A stretch of 64,000 bases of DNA, from IMG/VR virus record IMGVR_UViG_3300027857_000001, positions 1 to 64,000 of that record. The stretch is one strand, 5' to 3'. Source of the DNA: a virus. The first letter of the stretch is position 1; each line of letters starts with the position of its first letter. The notes under the pieces were generated by a model. That model worked only from the letters and a program-made list of their open reading frames with translations, was not told the DNA's origin and searched no databases. The position numbers and the translations under genes are program-made. This document shows positions 18,969 to 28,711 of the stretch, piece after piece.

Positions 18969-19484
18969 GTGATGACACTCCCAGCTTGGACGGAAGTGGG
19001 TTTACTACCTGCTGGCGCGCACCGGTCAGACATGCCTGGCATTTATGACCGCTTCGTGCTTGATGCCCCGCATCGGGATCACCGGGAACTGCTGTTCAGC
19101 GCGTTGACAACACATCTCCGGCTAATGCAAAGGATCATTCCTGCTGGCGTAGCTTGGATAGATGGAAGCTTCGCCACGTGCAGAGAGGAACCACCGGAGG
19201 ATGTGGACGTGGTGGTCCTGCCGATGGACTGGGCTGCGGTCAGGTCGCTGCCTGATGTGGCGCGCATGAACCTTCATGCGCTCCTGACCCTCAAGGAGGT
19301 CTCCATCGCGCACCCGGAAGACCTCTGGTTCTCCAGGTTGCAGCCCATAGGCGGCCTGGTAGACGCCTACCTGTGCGCACCTGGCCAGGAGGCGACATGG
19401 CAGGAGACGTGGTCGCGGGTAGTCGATGCTAAGGGTGTGGTCATCGATGGCCAGGTCAAAGGCTTTGCGGAGGTGACGTGGTGA
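18969..19484 (+). CDS. DUF6932-like minimal nucleotidyltransferase
   Basis: GLLPAGAH N-terminus; WIDGSFAT...PEDVDVVV (GS-DxD). Confidence 0.7.
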   Translation: MMTLPAWTEVGLLPAGAHRSDMPGIYDRFVLDAPHRDHRELLFSALTTHLRLMQRIIPAGVAWIDGSFATCREEPPEDVDVVVLPMDWAAVRSLPDVARMNLHALLTLKEVSIAHPEDLWFSRLQPIGGLVDAYLCAPGQEATWQETWSRVVDAKGVVIDGQVKGFAEVTW

Positions 19485-20359: not shown

Positions 20360-20497
20360 GCAGTGGAAATTCCGGGGCGTCTGTGCATCCTTTTTGTCAG
20401 ACCCTGCCGCTATTATCGGAGTGAGAAGAAAAGGAAATAGCAAGCGGCCCCCGCGACGCGCCAACGTCCGAGGGCCTGGACCAAGGAGCGCAACTCC

Positions 20498-22993: not shown

Positions 22994-23097
22994 TGCTGGT
23001 AGGCGACCGTCCGTGAAACAGGAACCCCGGCCCGTGAGGGCCGAGAATCCCCTCCCTGAAGGAAGGGGAGAAGTCAAGCTAGGAGGGAACCCCGAAA
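22921..23097 (+). ncRNA. TnpB omega/reRNA: scaffold ending at TCAA (23074-23077), guide from 23078
   Basis: RE hairpin CCCCTCCCTGAAGGAAGGGG followed by AAGTCAA; scaffold overlaps the tnpB 3' end as usual for this family. Confidence 0.7.
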
Positions 23098-23279
23098 CGA
23101 GCCGCGAAACTCAGCGCGGCGCGGGTTCCGGGTTCCGGAGTTAGCGTCCGGCCTGCGGTTTTGTCCTGTCTGTCCGGTAGTGCGTGTCCGCGCGGGACCG
23201 GGCGCGATCTCATGGCCGCAATTCTCGTGTCCGGGCATGCCTGCGACCCCGCCAGCAGCGGGGTAATAGGCAGGGCTGC

Positions 23280-24383
23280 CTATGTCCGGGCGATGAGCAG
23301 CGCGGATGCGAGCTGGGCGAAGATGGTCAGGTCCACGTGGAGCCGGACGCGGTAGATGCGCCGGACCCGCAGCGGCAGCGCGCCCCACTCGTTCTTGAGC
23401 CGGCCGAATTCCCGCTCCACCGCGCCGCGCTGGTGATACAGGCTTTTCCATCGGGGCGTGCTGCGCGGGATCAGGGTGTGCAGCCGGTCCGCTTTCAGCC
23501 ACGTGGACGCGGGCGTGCACTCACCGGACGGGCAGCGCCACTTGGACGCTCCCCGCCTGGTGTCGGACCCGGCGAACGTCCACGTACCGTGCTCGCACGA
23601 CGGCGGCAGGTGCTTGCCGGCCTTGACGGCGGGTGTCTGCCGCACTGGGATCACCGGCCGGATGTCCCGCTCTTCCAGCAGCGTGTACAGCGCCTGAGTG
23701 TCATAGCCACGGTCAAGGACCGCGATCGACGGGGCGAACCCGCGCCCGTTCGCGGCGTCGAGCAGCACCGGCACCGTGGGTATCTCGCTGTCTTTCGCGG
23801 TCTGCACCTGCCACGCCACCGGCAGCCCGGTCACGATGTCCACGCACGCGTGAACCTTATAGCCGTAATACCCGCCGCCGCTGCGCGTGGAAATGGACGA
23901 GCGGTGACCCCATGTCGCGTCCGGGTCGGAGAACTTCTCGCGCAGTTTCCCGCCGCGTGACACGTATTTCTGCCCGTTCGCGTAGGCGGGAAGGTCGGAC
24001 CCGTCAATAGCGACCGCGCTGCCCATTTCCGGGTTGAGGGAATGCAGTTCCGCCAGCACCTTCTCAATGCACGACGTGAGCATGTCCCCATGGGTCCGCA
24101 GCTTGACCGTGAACCTGTAGCACGCGTCCGTGGACGGGGCCGCACCCAGCACGTCCCGCAGCCCGGCGTGGTCAGCGACCAGCGCGACCGTCCGCGTCCA
24201 CGTGGGCAGGCAGTACACGGACTTGACCAGCGTGATGCCGACCATGGCACGCACCGGGTAGCCGGGCCGGCCCGTCCACCGGGTCGCCTCAAGCTGGGCG
24301 ATGAGCCCGGTGATCTCCGGGCTGTCCAGCAGCGCGGCAACCTGTGCGGCATCGCGCGGGAGTGATACGGTCGAAGCGGCCAT
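23280..24383 (-). CDS. DDE transposase, element B
   Basis: Same motifs as copy A; roughly three-quarters identical by eye. Confidence 0.9.
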   Translation of the reverse strand: MAASTVSLPRDAAQVAALLDSPEITGLIAQLEATRWTGRPGYPVRAMVGITLVKSVYCLPTWTRTVALVADHAGLRDVLGAAPSTDACYRFTVKLRTHGDMLTSCIEKVLAELHSLNPEMGSAVAIDGSDLPAYANGQKYVSRGGKLREKFSDPDATWGHRSSISTRSGGGYYGYKVHACVDIVTGLPVAWQVQTAKDSEIPTVPVLLDAANGRGFAPSIAVLDRGYDTQALYTLLEERDIRPVIPVRQTPAVKAGKHLPPSCEHGTWTFAGSDTRRGASKWRCPSGECTPASTWLKADRLHTLIPRSTPRWKSLYHQRGAVEREFGRLKNEWGALPLRVRRIYRVRLHVDLTIFAQLASALLIART

Positions 24384-24670
24384 GGAGTTGCATCTCCTGG
24401 TCCAGGCCCCCGGAGTGTTACCAGCACTCGCGGGGGTCGCCCTTTATTTCCTTTTCCCTTCTCTTCGACTATATCGCTTGGGTCTGACATTTTCAGGGGT
24501 CCTGAAAGCCGCCATCGGCAGGAATTGTTGCTTTTCTAATATGGGCGAACTCGCGGGTTAATCCGGCCGCGCGCCTGCCGCGACGATGCTGAGAAGCCGG
24601 TGTGGCGTGGACGATTGGCCACGCCTGGCTATACTCTCAAGCAGCGCCTCAAGTAGCGCAGGCTGAATCG

Positions 24671-24744
24671 TGCCCCAGGCAGGGTTCCAACCTGCGACTG
24701 TCGGCTTAGCAGGCCGGCGCTCTATGCGACTGAGCTACTGGGGC
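24671..24744 (-). tRNA. Atypical tRNA-like gene: anticodon GCT on a class I, Arg(TCT)-like body
   Basis: GCCCCAG TA GCTC AGTCGCATA GAGC G CCGGC CTGCTAA GCCGA CAGTC GCAGG TTGGAAC CCTGC CTGGGGC A folds into a full cloverleaf (one C27:A43 mismatch); no encoded CCA. Confidence 0.75.
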
Positions 24745-24974
24745 TGGAGGCTGCGGAGCCACTGGTATGGCCCCGCAGCCAGAGTTAGCCCCGGGAGGGC
24801 TGGGTGTCTGAGCCCGTCGGTCCTCCCGGGGCGGCTTCTCTCATAGGCATTCGCTCCCAACTCAGGAAGTAAGCCGCGCTCCCACCGGAGCTTAGCGCAC
24901 TGAAGGCGTGCGTGGGGCGCGGTGATGGGCTTGCCGCCTCGCGTGTCCCTCCGGGCGGATCGGTGTAGGCGCGC

Positions 24975-25901
24975 ATGTCCCTCGGCGAGTTGCTGAATCG
25001 GTCCGGTGTTCCCGCTAAGATGCTCTTGGCGACACTTGGAGGAACGGCCATGCCGAGCGCAAGGGGACACGTGAAGGACGGGAAGAGCCCGACGGCCTTT
25101 CCGATCATCCCGCTCAAGGACGTAGTGGAAATGGCGTGCCTGATTGGCCGACGGGGCGGCAGGTGCCGATTTGATGAGCTTGCCAGCTCACTGGACCAGG
25201 TCAGGACCAGCGGCGCGTTCCGGGGGCGGACGGCCGCCGGCCGTATGTTCGGTGCAACAGAGACTGTCGGCAGTGAGCTGGTCCTTACCGACATCGGACG
25301 GCGCATGGCCGCGTCGCCCTCGGACGTGGACATGCTGGCGGAAGCCTTCCTGAGCGTGGAGCTATACGGGAAACTGTTCGACCGGTACGCCGCCGACGGC
25401 GGGAAGCTGCCTGCTGTAGACGTCATCGACGTGGACATCGAGCGTCTCGGAGTACCCGAGCACCGGGCGACCAGGGCGCGTCAGGTCTTCATCCGGAGCG
25501 CAGAGACCGCCGGATTCTTCCGCTCGGGTCGCGACCGGCTCATCCGCCCCAACGGAGGTAGCATCGCAGTCGGGCGTAGTGCCGTGCCCGAGCGCAAGGA
25601 GCCTGCGGAAGTGTTTCATCCAGAAGCAGAAGTGGTGCTTGCGATGCCAACGCCGGCACCGCCGTCGCACTCACTACCGCCGTCGCACTCACTACCGCCG
25701 TTGATGCAGGCGCTGGTGGACAGACTGCCGGCTGAGGGCGAGCGGTACACACCTCAGCAGCGCGAGCACTGGCTTGAGACAGCGAAGAACGTCCTCGACC
25801 TTGTCTACGTGGATGATGCACCCGCGCCGCCGTCTGCCAGCCCGAACGGGCACACAGGCTCGTACCCGGAACCGGTGATTCAACCCGAAACGCGGGCATG
25901 A
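24975..25901 (+). CDS. Winged-helix hypothetical protein (real start may be GTG 25071)
   Basis: wHTH-like N-terminus (DELASSL...SGAFRGRTAAGRMFG...LTDIG); ARQVFIRSAETAGFF. Confidence 0.55.
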   Translation: MSLGELLNRSGVPAKMLLATLGGTAMPSARGHVKDGKSPTAFPIIPLKDVVEMACLIGRRGGRCRFDELASSLDQVRTSGAFRGRTAAGRMFGATETVGSELVLTDIGRRMAASPSDVDMLAEAFLSVELYGKLFDRYAADGGKLPAVDVIDVDIERLGVPEHRATRARQVFIRSAETAGFFRSGRDRLIRPNGGSIAVGRSAVPERKEPAEVFHPEAEVVLAMPTPAPPSHSLPPSHSLPPLMQALVDRLPAEGERYTPQQREHWLETAKNVLDLVYVDDAPAPPSASPNGHTGSYPEPVIQPETRA

Positions 25902-26182
25902 CCAAGGGGCACCCCCGGCACGGGAATGCCCCCGTATGCGCGTCCCTGAGTTCGTCGGCCTAACGGCAGGCGTCCGGACTCGTCGAGGCCGAACCCGCCG
26001 CTGCGCACCCTGGCGATGAACGCCTGCCACTCGGCCTGGGCGCAGCGGTGGACCGGCCCACTGCCGTGCTGCTTGGTGTCGCGGACCAGGATCGTCCCGT
26101 CGGCGTCCTGCCCGATTTCGACGCAGTTGCCGCCGCCGTTCCCTGAGTAGCTGGACTTCCTCCAGCCGTTCACGTTTTCCAT
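25880..26182 (-). CDS. DUF397 protein, copy B
   Basis: WRKSSYSGNGGGNCVEIG...VRDTK. Confidence 0.9.
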   Translation of the reverse strand: MENVNGWRKSSYSGNGGGNCVEIGQDADGTILVRDTKQHGSGPVHRCAQAEWQAFIARVRSGGFGLDESGRLPLGRRTQGRAYGGIPVPGVPLGHARVSG

Positions 26183-27000
26183 TTCTCTTCCGCCACCTTC
26201 ATGATCAAGTCCCGTGACTGGCCCCGTGACAGCGCATCTCCCCGCACCCGGTCAAACGCTACAGCCGCCTTGCGTACCAGTGAGCGCTTCTCGACCGTCT
26301 GGTCCTCCACGCCTTCCATCCGCAGCGTGTCCGGCATGCCGTCCGCGCTGGCGATGTCGAACGCACCGCCGAGTCCGGCGTTGGCCCCGTTGACGGCAGG
26401 GATCACCTGCACCACCAGGAACGGGCGGCGTGACCACTCGGCCACCTGCACCAGCGCGTCGTGCATCACCTGCGGCGAGCCGATCAGGCGGTGCAGCACC
26501 GCCTCGTCCAGCACCACCACGGTATCGGGCGGGTCGCCCCGCTCGAACACGGCCTGACGCTCCAGCCGCGCCGACACCAGCCCGTCGATCATGTCCTCGC
26601 TGGTATCGGACTGTGCCGCAAGGAACAGCGCCCGCGCGTACTCCGCCGTCTGGAGCAGGCCCGGTATCAGCACCGGGGACCATATCCGCAGCGACTGCGC
26701 CTCATGCTCAGCCTCAAGCCAGTCCTCGAACCACGTCGGGACCGGCCCGTCACTGGCGCGCGCCAGCCTCGCCAGCCGGGTGAACAGATCCTCATCCAGC
26801 CCGCACGCGGAGCACCACGCCGACAGCACGTCCGGTGTCGGCGGGCGCTCCCCGGTCTCCGCCTTCGTGACGACTGTCCGGTCGAACCCGAGCCGGGCGG
26901 CCAGTGCCTCCTGGCTGCTGAACCCGGCCGTCATCCGGGCCCGGCGAAGTTCCCCGCCGAGGAACGCGCGGGGGTCGGTGTCCGGGTCGCGTCTGGTCAT
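26170..27000 (-). CDS. XRE HTH-DUF5753 regulator, copy B
   Basis: About 39 differences in 276 aa versus copy A by manual comparison (~86% identity). Confidence 0.9.
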   Translation of the reverse strand: MTRRDPDTDPRAFLGGELRRARMTAGFSSQEALAARLGFDRTVVTKAETGERPPTPDVLSAWCSACGLDEDLFTRLARLARASDGPVPTWFEDWLEAEHEAQSLRIWSPVLIPGLLQTAEYARALFLAAQSDTSEDMIDGLVSARLERQAVFERGDPPDTVVVLDEAVLHRLIGSPQVMHDALVQVAEWSRRPFLVVQVIPAVNGANAGLGGAFDIASADGMPDTLRMEGVEDQTVEKRSLVRKAAVAFDRVRGDALSRGQSRDLIMKVAEEKWKT

Positions 27001-27118
27001 CGTGGCAAGCCTCCAGCAGCACAGTGGCGGATCGTGGCAGGCGCATTCGTCACGTAAACCAAGCGTGCCCTTTCACGCTGTGATCGGCAATAGCCGGCAC
27101 AGTACGGAGGGGACAGCG

Positions 27119-27526
27119 ATGGAACACACGGCAGTCGAGACCTCAATGCGGCTGCTCCATGCCGTCTACCCCGCCGAGCCCGCGCAGGTCAGGCACGCCC
27201 GGAAAGCACTCGCCGGCCTGCTCGGCGACACCCCCGTCACCGACACCGCGCTGCTGATCGCGTCGGAGTTCGCCACCAACGCCGTCCTGCACAGCGCATC
27301 CCGCAACGGCGGGACGTTCACCCTCCGCGCCGGGATCACCGGCAGCACCCTGCGGATAGAAGTGGAAGACAGCGGCGGCGCATGGAACAGCCAGCCGCAC
27401 GACGACGGCAGGCCGCACGGGCTTGACGTGATAGAGGCATTCACCGGACCCGGCAACTGGGGCATCATCGGGGACGCCGGCGGGCGCACCGCCTGGGTCT
27501 ACCTCACCATCCCCGCAGCAGGGTAG
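27119..27526 (+). CDS. RsbW-like HATPase, copy B
   Basis: LIASEFATNAVLHS, RIEVEDSGG, GRPHGLDV, GGRTAWV. Confidence 0.85.
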   Translation: MEHTAVETSMRLLHAVYPAEPAQVRHARKALAGLLGDTPVTDTALLIASEFATNAVLHSASRNGGTFTLRAGITGSTLRIEVEDSGGAWNSQPHDDGRPHGLDVIEAFTGPGNWGIIGDAGGRTAWVYLTIPAAG

Positions 27527-27739
27527 CCCGCCGACAGCACGACGCCGGGCAAGATCCAGGATGACCCCGGACCCGCCCGGCGTGGCTTGCACGTTCCTGG
27601 CCTCGTTCCGTGGAACGATTGCCGGTTGGGAACTCACGGAACGTAGCGGCCGTTCGCAGCGGCTCTGGCTACGTTAGCGCTTTCATGCTGCCGCCGGCAG
27701 CAGGCGCGCCGTTCTGTTCCCTAACCGAAAGGGAACTCA

Positions 27740-28015
27740 ATGAGCGAATTCCTGATCACGTGCGTCCGGATGAGCGGGCGCACCGCTGCGGGCCATCACC
27801 ACATCGTCAGCGTGGGCGTCGGCGGCGAGCAGTTCACCGTAGAGGAGATCTACCAGGCAATCGATGCGGGACACAGGTTCCGCACTGCGAGCCCGTCATC
27901 GGGGACGGAAGCGCCCGTAGCCAAGTACCACTGCGCCTGCGGTCTTGACACGCTCCGCTCGCACTCGGACAAGTACTGGGACAACAACCTGGACAACCTG
28001 CCTGCGTGCCCGTAA
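27740..28015 (+). CDS. DUF3892 protein
   Basis: ITCVR...HHHIVSVG...LRSHSDKYWDNNLDNLPAC. Confidence 0.8.
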   Translation: MSEFLITCVRMSGRTAAGHHHIVSVGVGGEQFTVEEIYQAIDAGHRFRTASPSSGTEAPVAKYHCACGLDTLRSHSDKYWDNNLDNLPACP

Positions 28016-28312
28016 ATCCGCATCCGTCCTGATCCAGTCAATAGCATGATCAGCCGGGAAGGGACTGGCGCGAACCGGTTCCTTCCCGGCACGCGGATGG
28101 CAGGTATAGCCCATCGCGATCGCGATCGCGTCGGCGATCCACGGGATGAACGCGTCCGCGTCGGCCACGGAAATGTCAAGGGCATACCGGCCATCCAGCA
28201 GGAGCCCGATCTTCCCGCCATTGACTGGCATCGCGTCCAGGAACGGGACCCGGTGGCCATCTACGACCACACGGTGACTCTCAAAAGGGCCAACGATCTG
28301 ATAATCGCTCAT
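27896..28312 (-). CDS. Hypothetical protein
   Basis: ORF convergent on DUF3892; globular composition in the first ~100 aa. Confidence 0.45.
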   Translation of the reverse strand: MSDYQIVGPFESHRVVVDGHRVPFLDAMPVNGGKIGLLLDGRYALDISVADADAFIPWIADAIAIAMGYTCHPRAGKEPVRASPFPADHAIDWIRTDADLRARRQVVQVVVPVLVRVRAERVKTAGAVVLGYGRFRPR

Positions 28313-28368
28313 GTCGTCAGCTTCCCCTGGCTAGCGCACGCAACGCCAGTCCCGATCAGGGGCTCTTG

Positions 28369-28405
28369 AAACGGAACGGGACGGCCATGCAGGTGACCGT
28401 CCCGT
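28369..28405. terminator. Terminator hairpin, element B copy
   Basis: Reverse complement ACGGGACGGTCACCTGCATGGCCGTCCCGTTCCGTTT versus 15608 ACGGGACGGCCGCCTGCATGGCCGTCCCGTTTCCGTTT. Confidence 0.7.
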
Positions 28406-28711
28406 CCAAGCCATGCCCTGCCGCGAATCCACAGCATCACCACGGCGAGCCGTGACGCCCCGCTTCTTCCAGGAGCACCTGCATGCCCGCGACGGAACCG
28501 GGCGGAGTGTGGTTATCCCGCATGGGTTTTCCGGAGAGGCTGCAAGGTCAGGCTGGGTACCAACGTGACCACCCCCTCACGGTCCGGGAGATGAACTCCC
28601 GGCCACCAGGGTACCCGGAACATGGGGTAGACAGCGGCCGGATCTGGGGTCCGCGCTGACCAGCCACGACACCTAACCGCAGGCCAGCACCGTTTCGCAG
28701 AACCCTCCTAG

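Follow-up and report, generated by a model that had tools for sequence, protein, structure and literature searches.

What role is played by a lone tRNA gene that joins the anticodon of one amino acid to what appears to be the body of another, and that is carried by a transposon within a phage? The gene lies in the window analyzed here (a stretch of 64,000 nucleotides, positions 1 to 64,000 of the IMG/VR virus record IMGVR_UViG_3300027857_000001), and according to ARAGORN it is the sole tRNA of the complete 135,301-bp record. This virus genome has direct terminal repeats, is rated complete and has a G+C content of 69.6%; its gene content (WhiB, XRE-DUF5753) is actinomycete-like. The gene and its carrier are located as follows:

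23079..28711, no strand: transposon B, carrying the cassette described below and an XRE-DUF5753 / HATPase / DUF397-type triad (ends shared with sibling transposon A)
23280..24383, minus strand: IS5/IS1182-like DDE transposase of element B (DDE_Tnp_1, 5e-21, Pfam; IS1182/IS5 models, NCBIfam)
24671..24744, minus strand: class-I tRNA with an Arg(CCU)-type body, a GCU anticodon and a C19:G56 elbow (ARAGORN, Rfam, direct reading)

The tRNA itself is a well-formed one. ARAGORN calls a single tRNA in the window (24670-24744, minus strand, anticodon gct), and the Rfam model RF00005 covers 24671-24744 of the minus strand end to end (61.8 bits at a gathering score of 29, E 5.6e-11; model positions 1-71), which bears out the intact cloverleaf of the original prediction. 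The short variable loop that it described is likewise there (CAGUC, 5 nt, with C48 at its end), and the pairs U8:A14, G15:C48, G18:U55, U54:A58 and C19:G56 are all found when the minus strand is read. The acceptor stem (1-7/66-72) pairs perfectly over 7 bp and the T stem has 5 bp; U8, A14, G15, G18, C19, A20, U20a and A21 are present, with A20 carried by the D loop AGUCGCAUA. The anticodon loop has the canonical 7 nt (CU-GCU-AA, i. e., C32 U33 G34 C35 U36 A37 A38), the T loop holds U54 U55 G56 G57 A58, the discriminator is A73, and CCA is not encoded. The sole non-canonical pair noted is a C.A mismatch at 27:43, marked 'v' in the Rfam alignment.

Which amino acid such a tRNA would carry can be judged from its identity nucleotides. 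The E. coli ArgRS recognizes A20, C35, U36 or G36, and A73 or G73 and ignores position 34; for bacterial SerRS, the long variable arm of class II tRNAs is essential. Direct reading confirms the A20, C35 and U36 of the original prediction and adds A73, all on a class-I body with a short variable loop, while the one departure from a tRNA-Arg is the lack of an anticodon for an Arg codon (NCU/NCG), GCU reading AGC/AGU. The body is thus supported as Arg type at the level of sequence. Because the nucleotides read by ArgRS are all there and the long arm required by SerRS is absent, arginine would be the most likely charge, and AGC and AGU the codons at which it would then be used. A genuine short-arm tRNA-Ser(GCU), charged by SerRS, has solely the anticodon in its favor and seems extremely improbable in view of the 5-nt variable loop, the discriminator A73 and a body that is 78-80% identical to tRNA-Arg(CCU); a bacterial tRNA-Ser of the regular kind is excluded by the short variable loop.

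The original prediction had further taken the elbow, in which G19:C56 is replaced by C19:G56, as a double change that points to selection on structure. When C19 on an Arg-type D arm together with an NCU anticodon was sought in genome contigs, at least 120 loci were obtained; among the matches listed are 119 complete sequences (30 distinct), which are distributed as follows:

CCU anticodon with G56: 114/119 complete sequences listed
UCU anticodon with G56: 1/119 complete sequences listed
UCU anticodon with C56: 2/119 complete sequences listed
T loop shifted by an insertion: 2/119 complete sequences listed

The matches listed are mostly chromosomal genes of Acidobacteriaceae and Blastocatellia/Pyrinomonadaceae, with a few from Pseudomonadota (Thioalkalicoccus, Cellvibrio, Hyphomonadaceae) and Eubacteriales, and a viral tRNA-Arg(UCU) (L001) has C19:G56, too. 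Because 115 of the 117 C19-bearing tRNA-Arg(NCU) genes among the matches listed (Acidobacteriota, Pseudomonadota, Eubacteriales, viral contigs) also have G56, the swap is an inherited trait: on this comparison C19:G56 is the elbow normally found in a widespread tRNA-Arg(CCU) lineage, to which the window gene, with both C19 and G56 on an Arg-type D arm, belongs. That both partners differ from the usual pair is therefore silent on selection acting on the window gene, and covariation at 19:56, a proposed measure of such selection, finds the two bases already paired as C19:G56 across the lineage. The proposed resemblance to tRNA-Arg(UCU) stands as far as the Arg type is concerned and fails for UCU. 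The closest relatives of the window tRNA among the matches listed are C19:G56 tRNA-Arg(CCU) genes (78-80% identity), tRNA-Arg genes also rank top among its phage matches, and the parent was likely of the CCU type, which is one substitution away from GCU. The real oddity of the gene is G34 alone (CCU to GCU).

With the chromosomal tRNA-Arg(CCU) genes of this lineage (L006-L125), the window gene shares the AGYYGCAUA D loop (C19, A20), G56 in the T loop, a 5-nt variable loop, A73 or G73 as discriminator and 78-80% overall identity. It differs in that those genes are single chromosomal copies with CCU, whereas it has GCU and resides in a transposon in a phage; moreover, its context is of actinomycete type, whereas the C19:G56 tRNA-Arg(CCU) matches listed come from other taxa. 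In Acidobacteriaceae members of the lineage, G.A is standard at 27:43. Neither the exact 43-nt word of the window tRNA nor the C19+GCU pattern occurs in the viral contigs searched (0 each), megablast of the tRNA region against plasmids and phages gave nothing useful, and the best phage or plasmid tRNA matches reach at most 85% identity, over partial length only.

Judged by sequence patterns, an Arg body with a GCU anticodon is not a one-off. A strict pattern (AUAGAGC D arm, CUGCUAA loop, 5-nt variable loop and T loop) matched 17 loci in viral contigs, five of which are distinct full short-arm tRNAs of 74-76 nt on unrelated viral contigs that ARAGORN labels Ser(gct); two of these five lie within phage tRNA clusters. 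The other 12 loci (L174, L176-L182, L185, L187-L189; IMG/VR contigs) hold one repeated tRNA-like element with an Arg-type D arm, the CUGCUAA loop and a good T arm, on which ARAGORN is silent and whose acceptor ends are unpaired (5' UUUCCUUG, 3' CUUGAUUAUU). It may serve as an att site derived from a tRNA or have a regulatory function.

Two tRNA arrays deserve mention as well. In a Bacteroidia MAG (JAUIBA010000005.1, L102:4186-4430), tandem 138-bp units each contain a near-identical C19-type Arg-like tRNA-like gene with a perfect 20-nt hairpin inserted after position 38, plus a terminator; the anticodons alternate GCU / UCU / GCU, and ARAGORN is again silent. The 11.85-Mb chromosome of Nonomuraea gerenzanensis (NZ_LT559118.1, listed as 'plasmid' in PLSDB; L134) carries four packed tRNAs at 6597627-6598299 (Gly-UCC, Leu-AAG, Glu-UUC and Arg-ACG, the latter 77 nt long with an unusual insertion), an arrangement that looks like an accessory array.

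Transposon B has a sibling, A, with which it has its ends in common (CTAGGAGGG...). The transposase of B lies downstream of the tRNA in the same orientation. The homologous blocks of both elements comprise the transposase (77% DNA identity) and XRE-DUF5753/HATPase (80%), and the stretch of B that contains the tRNA and the divergent gene P0001 is without counterpart in A. The hope that homologs in sibling transposons would inform on the tRNA was thus disappointed, as A carries neither tRNA nor leader RNA. As a separate observation, a cargo ORF of A (171 aa, 18969-19484, plus strand) matches in PADLOC the candidate defense family PDC-M63A (E 1.7e-14). Two metagenome contigs (L126, 132.6 kb; L127, 113 kb) of phage-like size and gene density, with many small ORFs, WhiB, GntR and Gp3-like genes, also contain transposases that share 77-80% identity with the one in element B, with no tRNA or P0001 homolog nearby; these contigs probably stem from related phages into which the same IS family has inserted. 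In the window, the IS5-like transposases are preceded by a motif, TGTCAGACCC, that is followed 6-8 nt on by a −10-like hexamer (TATAGT, TATTAT, CATAAT) (24468-24496, minus strand; 20393-20420, plus strand). The same motif stands before unrelated IS1-like transposases (L129, L136, L142-L144, L146, L148) and may be a shared promoter or operator.

The tRNA is part of a mobile cassette in which it is accompanied by a putative regulator of the winged-helix type and by a structured leader RNA, and we regard this cassette as a more interesting result than the tRNA itself. Its remaining parts in the window are:

24749..24780, minus strand: extra 14-bp hairpin between leader and tRNA (RNAfold; gap columns in the other 11 modules)
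24782..24863, minus strand: structured leader RNA of ~80 nt (conserved in 12 modules, compensatory changes)
24856-24863 with 24782-24787, minus strand: closing helix P1 of the leader
24788-24832, minus strand: long hairpin P2 of the leader
24833-24845, minus strand: single-stranded leader motif UAUGAGAGAAGCC
24975..25901, plus strand: P0001, a winged-helix protein of 308 aa, divergent from the tRNA, with a coding-type GC pattern

A tRNA on the opposite strand, 200-390 bp upstream of a P0001-family gene, is found in the window as well as in L129/L130, L136, L142-L150 and L156, and the tRNA-P0001 neighborhood therefore represents a conserved synteny across related loci. The order and spacing of protein, leader and tRNA are kept in 11 other loci from soil metagenomes, which together with the window make up the 12 modules compared here (window, L129, L136, L142-L148, L150 and L156). 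In two further loci (L131:5629-5731 and L140:2566-2668, both minus strand), the same slot is occupied by a 103-nt tRNA (45 bits in Rfam, missed by ARAGORN) whose variable arm is very long and whose anticodon loop has 8 nt (CCUGGAAA); the structured leader in front of it is a different one.

P0001 has no family match in Pfam, NCBIfam or PADLOC. Its predicted structure (mean pLDDT 77.8) matches in VIA-align only the generic winged helix of MarR/DtxR type, at residues 44-115 (Z about 10, rmsd 1.6-1.8 Å), and a Foldseek search of the model against the PDB gave 0 hits at E<=1e-3. The ESM Atlas returned unnamed clusters with weak leads to DUF5343 and AAA_assoc_C, no enzyme fold was recognized in the model, and no toxin or tRNA-enzyme family or fold was matched by Pfam, NCBIfam, PADLOC or VIA-align. 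From the model, P0001 is thus predicted to be a winged-helix protein of the DNA-binding type. Its family is large (3,621 cluster representatives at E<=1e-3, 508 at E<=1e-30), with 39 close homologs in soil metagenomes and none found by tblastn in plasmids, cultured phages or viral contigs.

The family is closely tied to insertion sequences. An IS1-like transposase gene (NCBIfam IS1, 6e-13, below the cut-off) follows the tRNA in six distinct elements (L129, L136, L142, L143, L144 and L148/L149), and in L146 only the start of such a gene is seen at the contig end; P0001-family genes adjoin the IS1-like transposase in all eight loci in which one was recognized. Terminal inverted repeats surround transposase, tRNA, leader and P0001 homolog in L148 (24 bp; 2.95 kb) and L136 (26 bp; 2.5 kb). 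At least two related cassettes hence reside inside IS1-family elements, much like the passenger genes known from that family, while the window cassette differs in riding an IS5/IS1182-like element. Among the more distant P0001 relatives sampled, two had enough upstream sequence to be judged: in L172/L173 the gene stands back-to-back with an IS1-like transposase with tRNA and leader absent, and L169 has no tRNA in the 395 nt upstream. Since the transposase partner is retained in a distant member that has neither tRNA nor leader, the winged-helix protein looks like an accessory or regulator gene of the IS1-like group. The leader-tRNA unit, for its part, seems to have been inserted, in one P0001 subclade, into the divergent control region.

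The leader consists of P1, a near-constant UAUGAGA(G/U)(A/G)AGCC (with a one-base departure in L145 and L147) and a 13-bp P2a topped by a 3-bp P2b. In 11 modules the 3' strand of P1 ends 1-4 nt before position 1 of the tRNA; the window leader has a different apical loop and an extra 32-nt hairpin before the tRNA that is seen in this copy only. Its helices vary in a paired manner: P2a reads GGGAGGG/CCCUCCC but GGGAAGG/CCUUCCC in L148, P2b reads GGG/CCC but GAG/CUC in three loci, and P1 is GGUGG/CCACC, with GGCG/CGCC in L146 and GAGUU/AACUC in the window. In the alignment of 12 sequences, 97.8% of cells pair and 12 pairs change on both sides, values reached by 0 of 500 shuffles and by 0 slid controls; covariation in the tRNA stems is largely trivial, because the alignment mixes different tRNA bodies. 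These compensatory changes support a structured leader RNA, for which Rfam holds no family. In all 12 modules, a Shine-Dalgarno-like GGAGGUG (part of P1) stands 5-9 nt before a conserved AUG-AGA, AGA being a rare Arg codon; the next codon is UGA in five copies, and in the others open frames of differing phase come after it. This may be either a two-codon mini-ORF or just a protein- or RNA-binding motif; a conserved leader ORF was rejected on account of the UGA in five copies and the different frames elsewhere. No RNA word of at least 11 nt complementary to the anticodon arm was found within 1.5 kb of the tRNA, and the RNAduplex optima for an anti-tRNA partner were scattered and inconsistent across the 12 modules. 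The literature search produced no description of a cassette of this kind, with winged-helix protein, leader RNA and exchangeable tRNA.

With lineage and surroundings in place, it may be asked whether the gene is simply a decaying passenger, namely a former tRNA-Arg(CCU), of use for AGG codons of the phage or element, that by C34G and the 27:43 mismatch has become a neutral or silenced relic. GCU and CCU differ by a single substitution, the phage uses AGG fairly often (11.8 per 1000), and one stem pair is mismatched; in addition, no near-identical relatives were found that could reveal constraint, and a consensus scan gave no promoter for either the tRNA or the leader. Yet the rest of the gene is intact (61.8 bits), the pairing of an Arg body with GCU recurs independently elsewhere, and a well-folded tRNA sits in the slot of all related cassettes. 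Since a non-Watson-Crick 27:43 is standard in the Acidobacteriaceae members of the parent lineage, C27.A43 is no sign of decay, and overall we consider a mere relic unlikely.

The tRNAs of the related cassettes are strikingly variable, albeit within limits. Ten cassettes share one Thr-like body (G1:C72, C2:G71); an Asn-type tRNA(GUU) is found in L156, and the Arg-type tRNA(GCU) in the window. Among the Thr-like relatives the acceptor, anticodon and T stems stay paired by way of compensatory changes, and G18, G19, T54-T55-C56 and A58 are constant. Their anticodon loops read GUGGUAU, GUGGAAU, AUCGCAC, CUCGCAC, CCGGUAC, CCCGUAC, UUCGUAC, CCCGAAC (two loci) and, with 6 nt, CCCGUA; G35 and A37 are invariant in these loops, and positions 32, 33, 34, 36 and 38 vary. 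One and the same body thereby displays anticodons for Thr (GGU, CGU), for 'Ser' on a short arm (GGA, CGA) and for Ala (CGC). The main anticodon base read by the synthetase is kept (G35 in Thr-like, C35 in Arg-like tRNAs), and the codon read moves one base from the cognate. Such a pattern would be expected of selected dual-identity tRNAs, but it also agrees with relaxed constraint on an element that is needed for its fold only.

According to this second interpretation, the tRNA is kept for its L shape, any body serves and the anticodon drifts; it could be a handle by which RNase P or RNase Z sets the 3' end of the leader, or a stabilizer or mark of the leader RNA. The immediate junction of P1 and tRNA in 11 modules (1-4 nt) is in line with such a role, as are the Thr-like, Asn-like, Arg-like and 103-nt long-arm bodies that share one slot, the C33 and the 6- and 8-nt anticodon loops among the siblings, and a leader with covariation-supported helices that is more strongly conserved than the tRNA loops. 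However, the acceptor and T arms suffice for RNase P, yet the cassettes also keep the D arm, G35, A37 and an anticodon stem with compensatory changes. In the window, moreover, the 32-nt extra hairpin parts leader from tRNA, and the Arg-type GCU tRNAs that occur in other viral contigs without a leader would be left unexplained. A purely structural role is therefore a possibility that we take seriously but consider rather doubtful.

Several known systems offer a frame for comparison. Defense-evading phage tRNAs are likewise borne by phages or mobile elements and have altered anticodon loops, by which they escape anticodon nucleases (PMC10264068, PMC11464382, PMC11555353). The window tRNA might correspondingly be a decoy or replacement, with a loop that escapes or soaks up an anticodon nuclease or a tRNA-modifying toxin; its residence in a phage and the fast evolution of the sibling anticodon loops would suit such a function. 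In the documented cases, however, the cognate anticodon is kept and normal decoding rescued, whereas here the anticodon itself, and with it the codon read, is changed. As Pfam and PADLOC searches recognized no nuclease or defense gene beside the cassette, and most of the cassettes are found in IS elements rather than phages, this explanation appears quite improbable. An explanation outside those considered here is given still less weight.

Closest in concept is the tRNAProX/ProRSx system of Streptomyces and Kitasatospora, a natural actinomycete tRNA type whose body and identity belong to one amino acid and whose anticodon belongs to another, and which mistranslates and tolerates a non-U33 (PMC10404621, PMC11415595). 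These tRNAs have a Pro body, A33, A34 anticodons (AGC, AUU, AGU) and an adjoining ProRSx synthetase gene (PMC10404621, PMC11415595); the window tRNA has an Arg body, U33 and G34, its neighbors are a transposase and the winged-helix protein instead of a synthetase, and it belongs to a transposon cassette with a leader RNA. In ecology, the nearest analogues are the allo-tRNAs and irregular tRNA polycistrons of soil bacteria (Mukai et al. 2017, PMC5389517). Their anticodons are very diverse and include GGU and GCU, they occur in soil metagenomes close to toxin-antitoxin loci and genes related to transposons, and some are charged yet apparently unused in translation. Allo-tRNAs have 8/4 or 9/3 acceptor/T-stem structures and a Ser-type long arm, whereas the window tRNA is a standard 7/5 class-I cloverleaf with a 7-bp acceptor stem, a 5-bp T stem and a 5-nt variable loop; the passages of that account considered here make no mention of a winged-helix protein or leader hairpin partner (PMC5389517).

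Against this background, the reading that we tentatively favor, while stopping short of calling it probable, is that of a regulated, ArgRS-charged tRNA that misreads Ser codons as Arg: from its fixed slot in a conserved cassette of regulator, RNA and tRNA, it may put arginine at serine codons. Charging, decoding and regulation by the cassette are predicted from sequence as follows. A tRNA of the tRNA-Arg(CCU) lineage, borne by the cassette, has ridden an IS5/IS1182-like transposon into a 135-kb actinomycete phage. It keeps the A20, C35, U36 and A73 read by ArgRS, and its decoding would be altered solely at position 34 (C to G). Once transcribed and processed, it would be charged with arginine and read AGC/AGU, so that serine positions would be mistranslated as arginine. 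Its transcription or maturation would probably be restrained by the divergently encoded winged-helix protein and by the leader hairpin to which its 5' end is fused.

Several lines of evidence argue for such a misreading tRNA: the intact cloverleaf (61.8 bits), in which every tertiary pair is present and the anticodon loop has its canonical 7 nt; the Arg lineage, with 78-80% identity to C19:G56 tRNA-Arg(CCU) and A20/C35/U36/A73 in place; the recurrence of Arg-type GCU tRNAs in five unrelated viral contigs and in the UCU/GCU array of the Bacteroidia MAG; the conservation of the cassette in 11 other loci, two of them within IS1-family elements; and the Thr-like siblings, whose stems are kept by compensation and whose G35 and A37 are invariant while other loop positions vary. 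A precedent is provided by Streptomyces tRNAProX, which decodes despite A33 (PMC10404621, PMC11415595). On the other hand, AGC is the commonest Ser codon of the phage (16.7 per 1000, as compared to 11.8 for AGG and 2.0 for AGA) and encodes the invariant S79 and S175 of P0001 as well as the conserved S168 and S199 of the transposase, so that decoding by this tRNA would harm the element itself. Sibling tRNAs with C33 (several), a 6-nt loop (one) or an 8-nt loop (one) also speak against decoding, and the three or four unrelated bodies in the slot also fit a role of shape alone. There is, furthermore, the C27.A43 mismatch, even though chromosomal Acidobacteriaceae tRNA-Arg(CCU) have G.A there, and no close relative of the exact window tRNA was found. 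That the genes of the element are themselves recoded from AGY to Arg was considered and rejected, since AGC sits at conserved serines. As an active Arg-tRNA(GCU) would damage these genes, either tight control or a role outside decoding is to be argued for.

Taken one step further, and as a more speculative proposal that we would not yet call likely, insertion sequences of soil actinomycetes and their phages may carry a self-regulated 'codon-misreading cassette', in which repressor and leader gate a chargeable, body-exchangeable tRNA whose anticodon is one base off its cognate, and by which the element imposes an amino acid substitution on demand. If this were true, serine could be replaced by arginine at AGC/AGU in host or phage when required; conceivable examples are a switch thrown under stress, an addiction module and a weapon that mobile elements use against one another. 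To our knowledge, very few systems of natural tRNAs that deliberately break the code have been recognized, namely tRNAProX, allo-tRNAs and the nematode nev-tRNAs. The cassette offers a defined and testable unit in this regard, with one protein, one RNA of roughly 80 nt and one tRNA. Independently of its function, the systematic inversion of the near-universal G19:C56 pair in a whole tRNA-Arg(CCU) lineage is relevant to enzymes and RNAs that read the tRNA elbow. And should the tRNA indeed be charged and take part in translation, ready-made devices for Ser-to-Arg misreading would be disseminated by mobile DNA.
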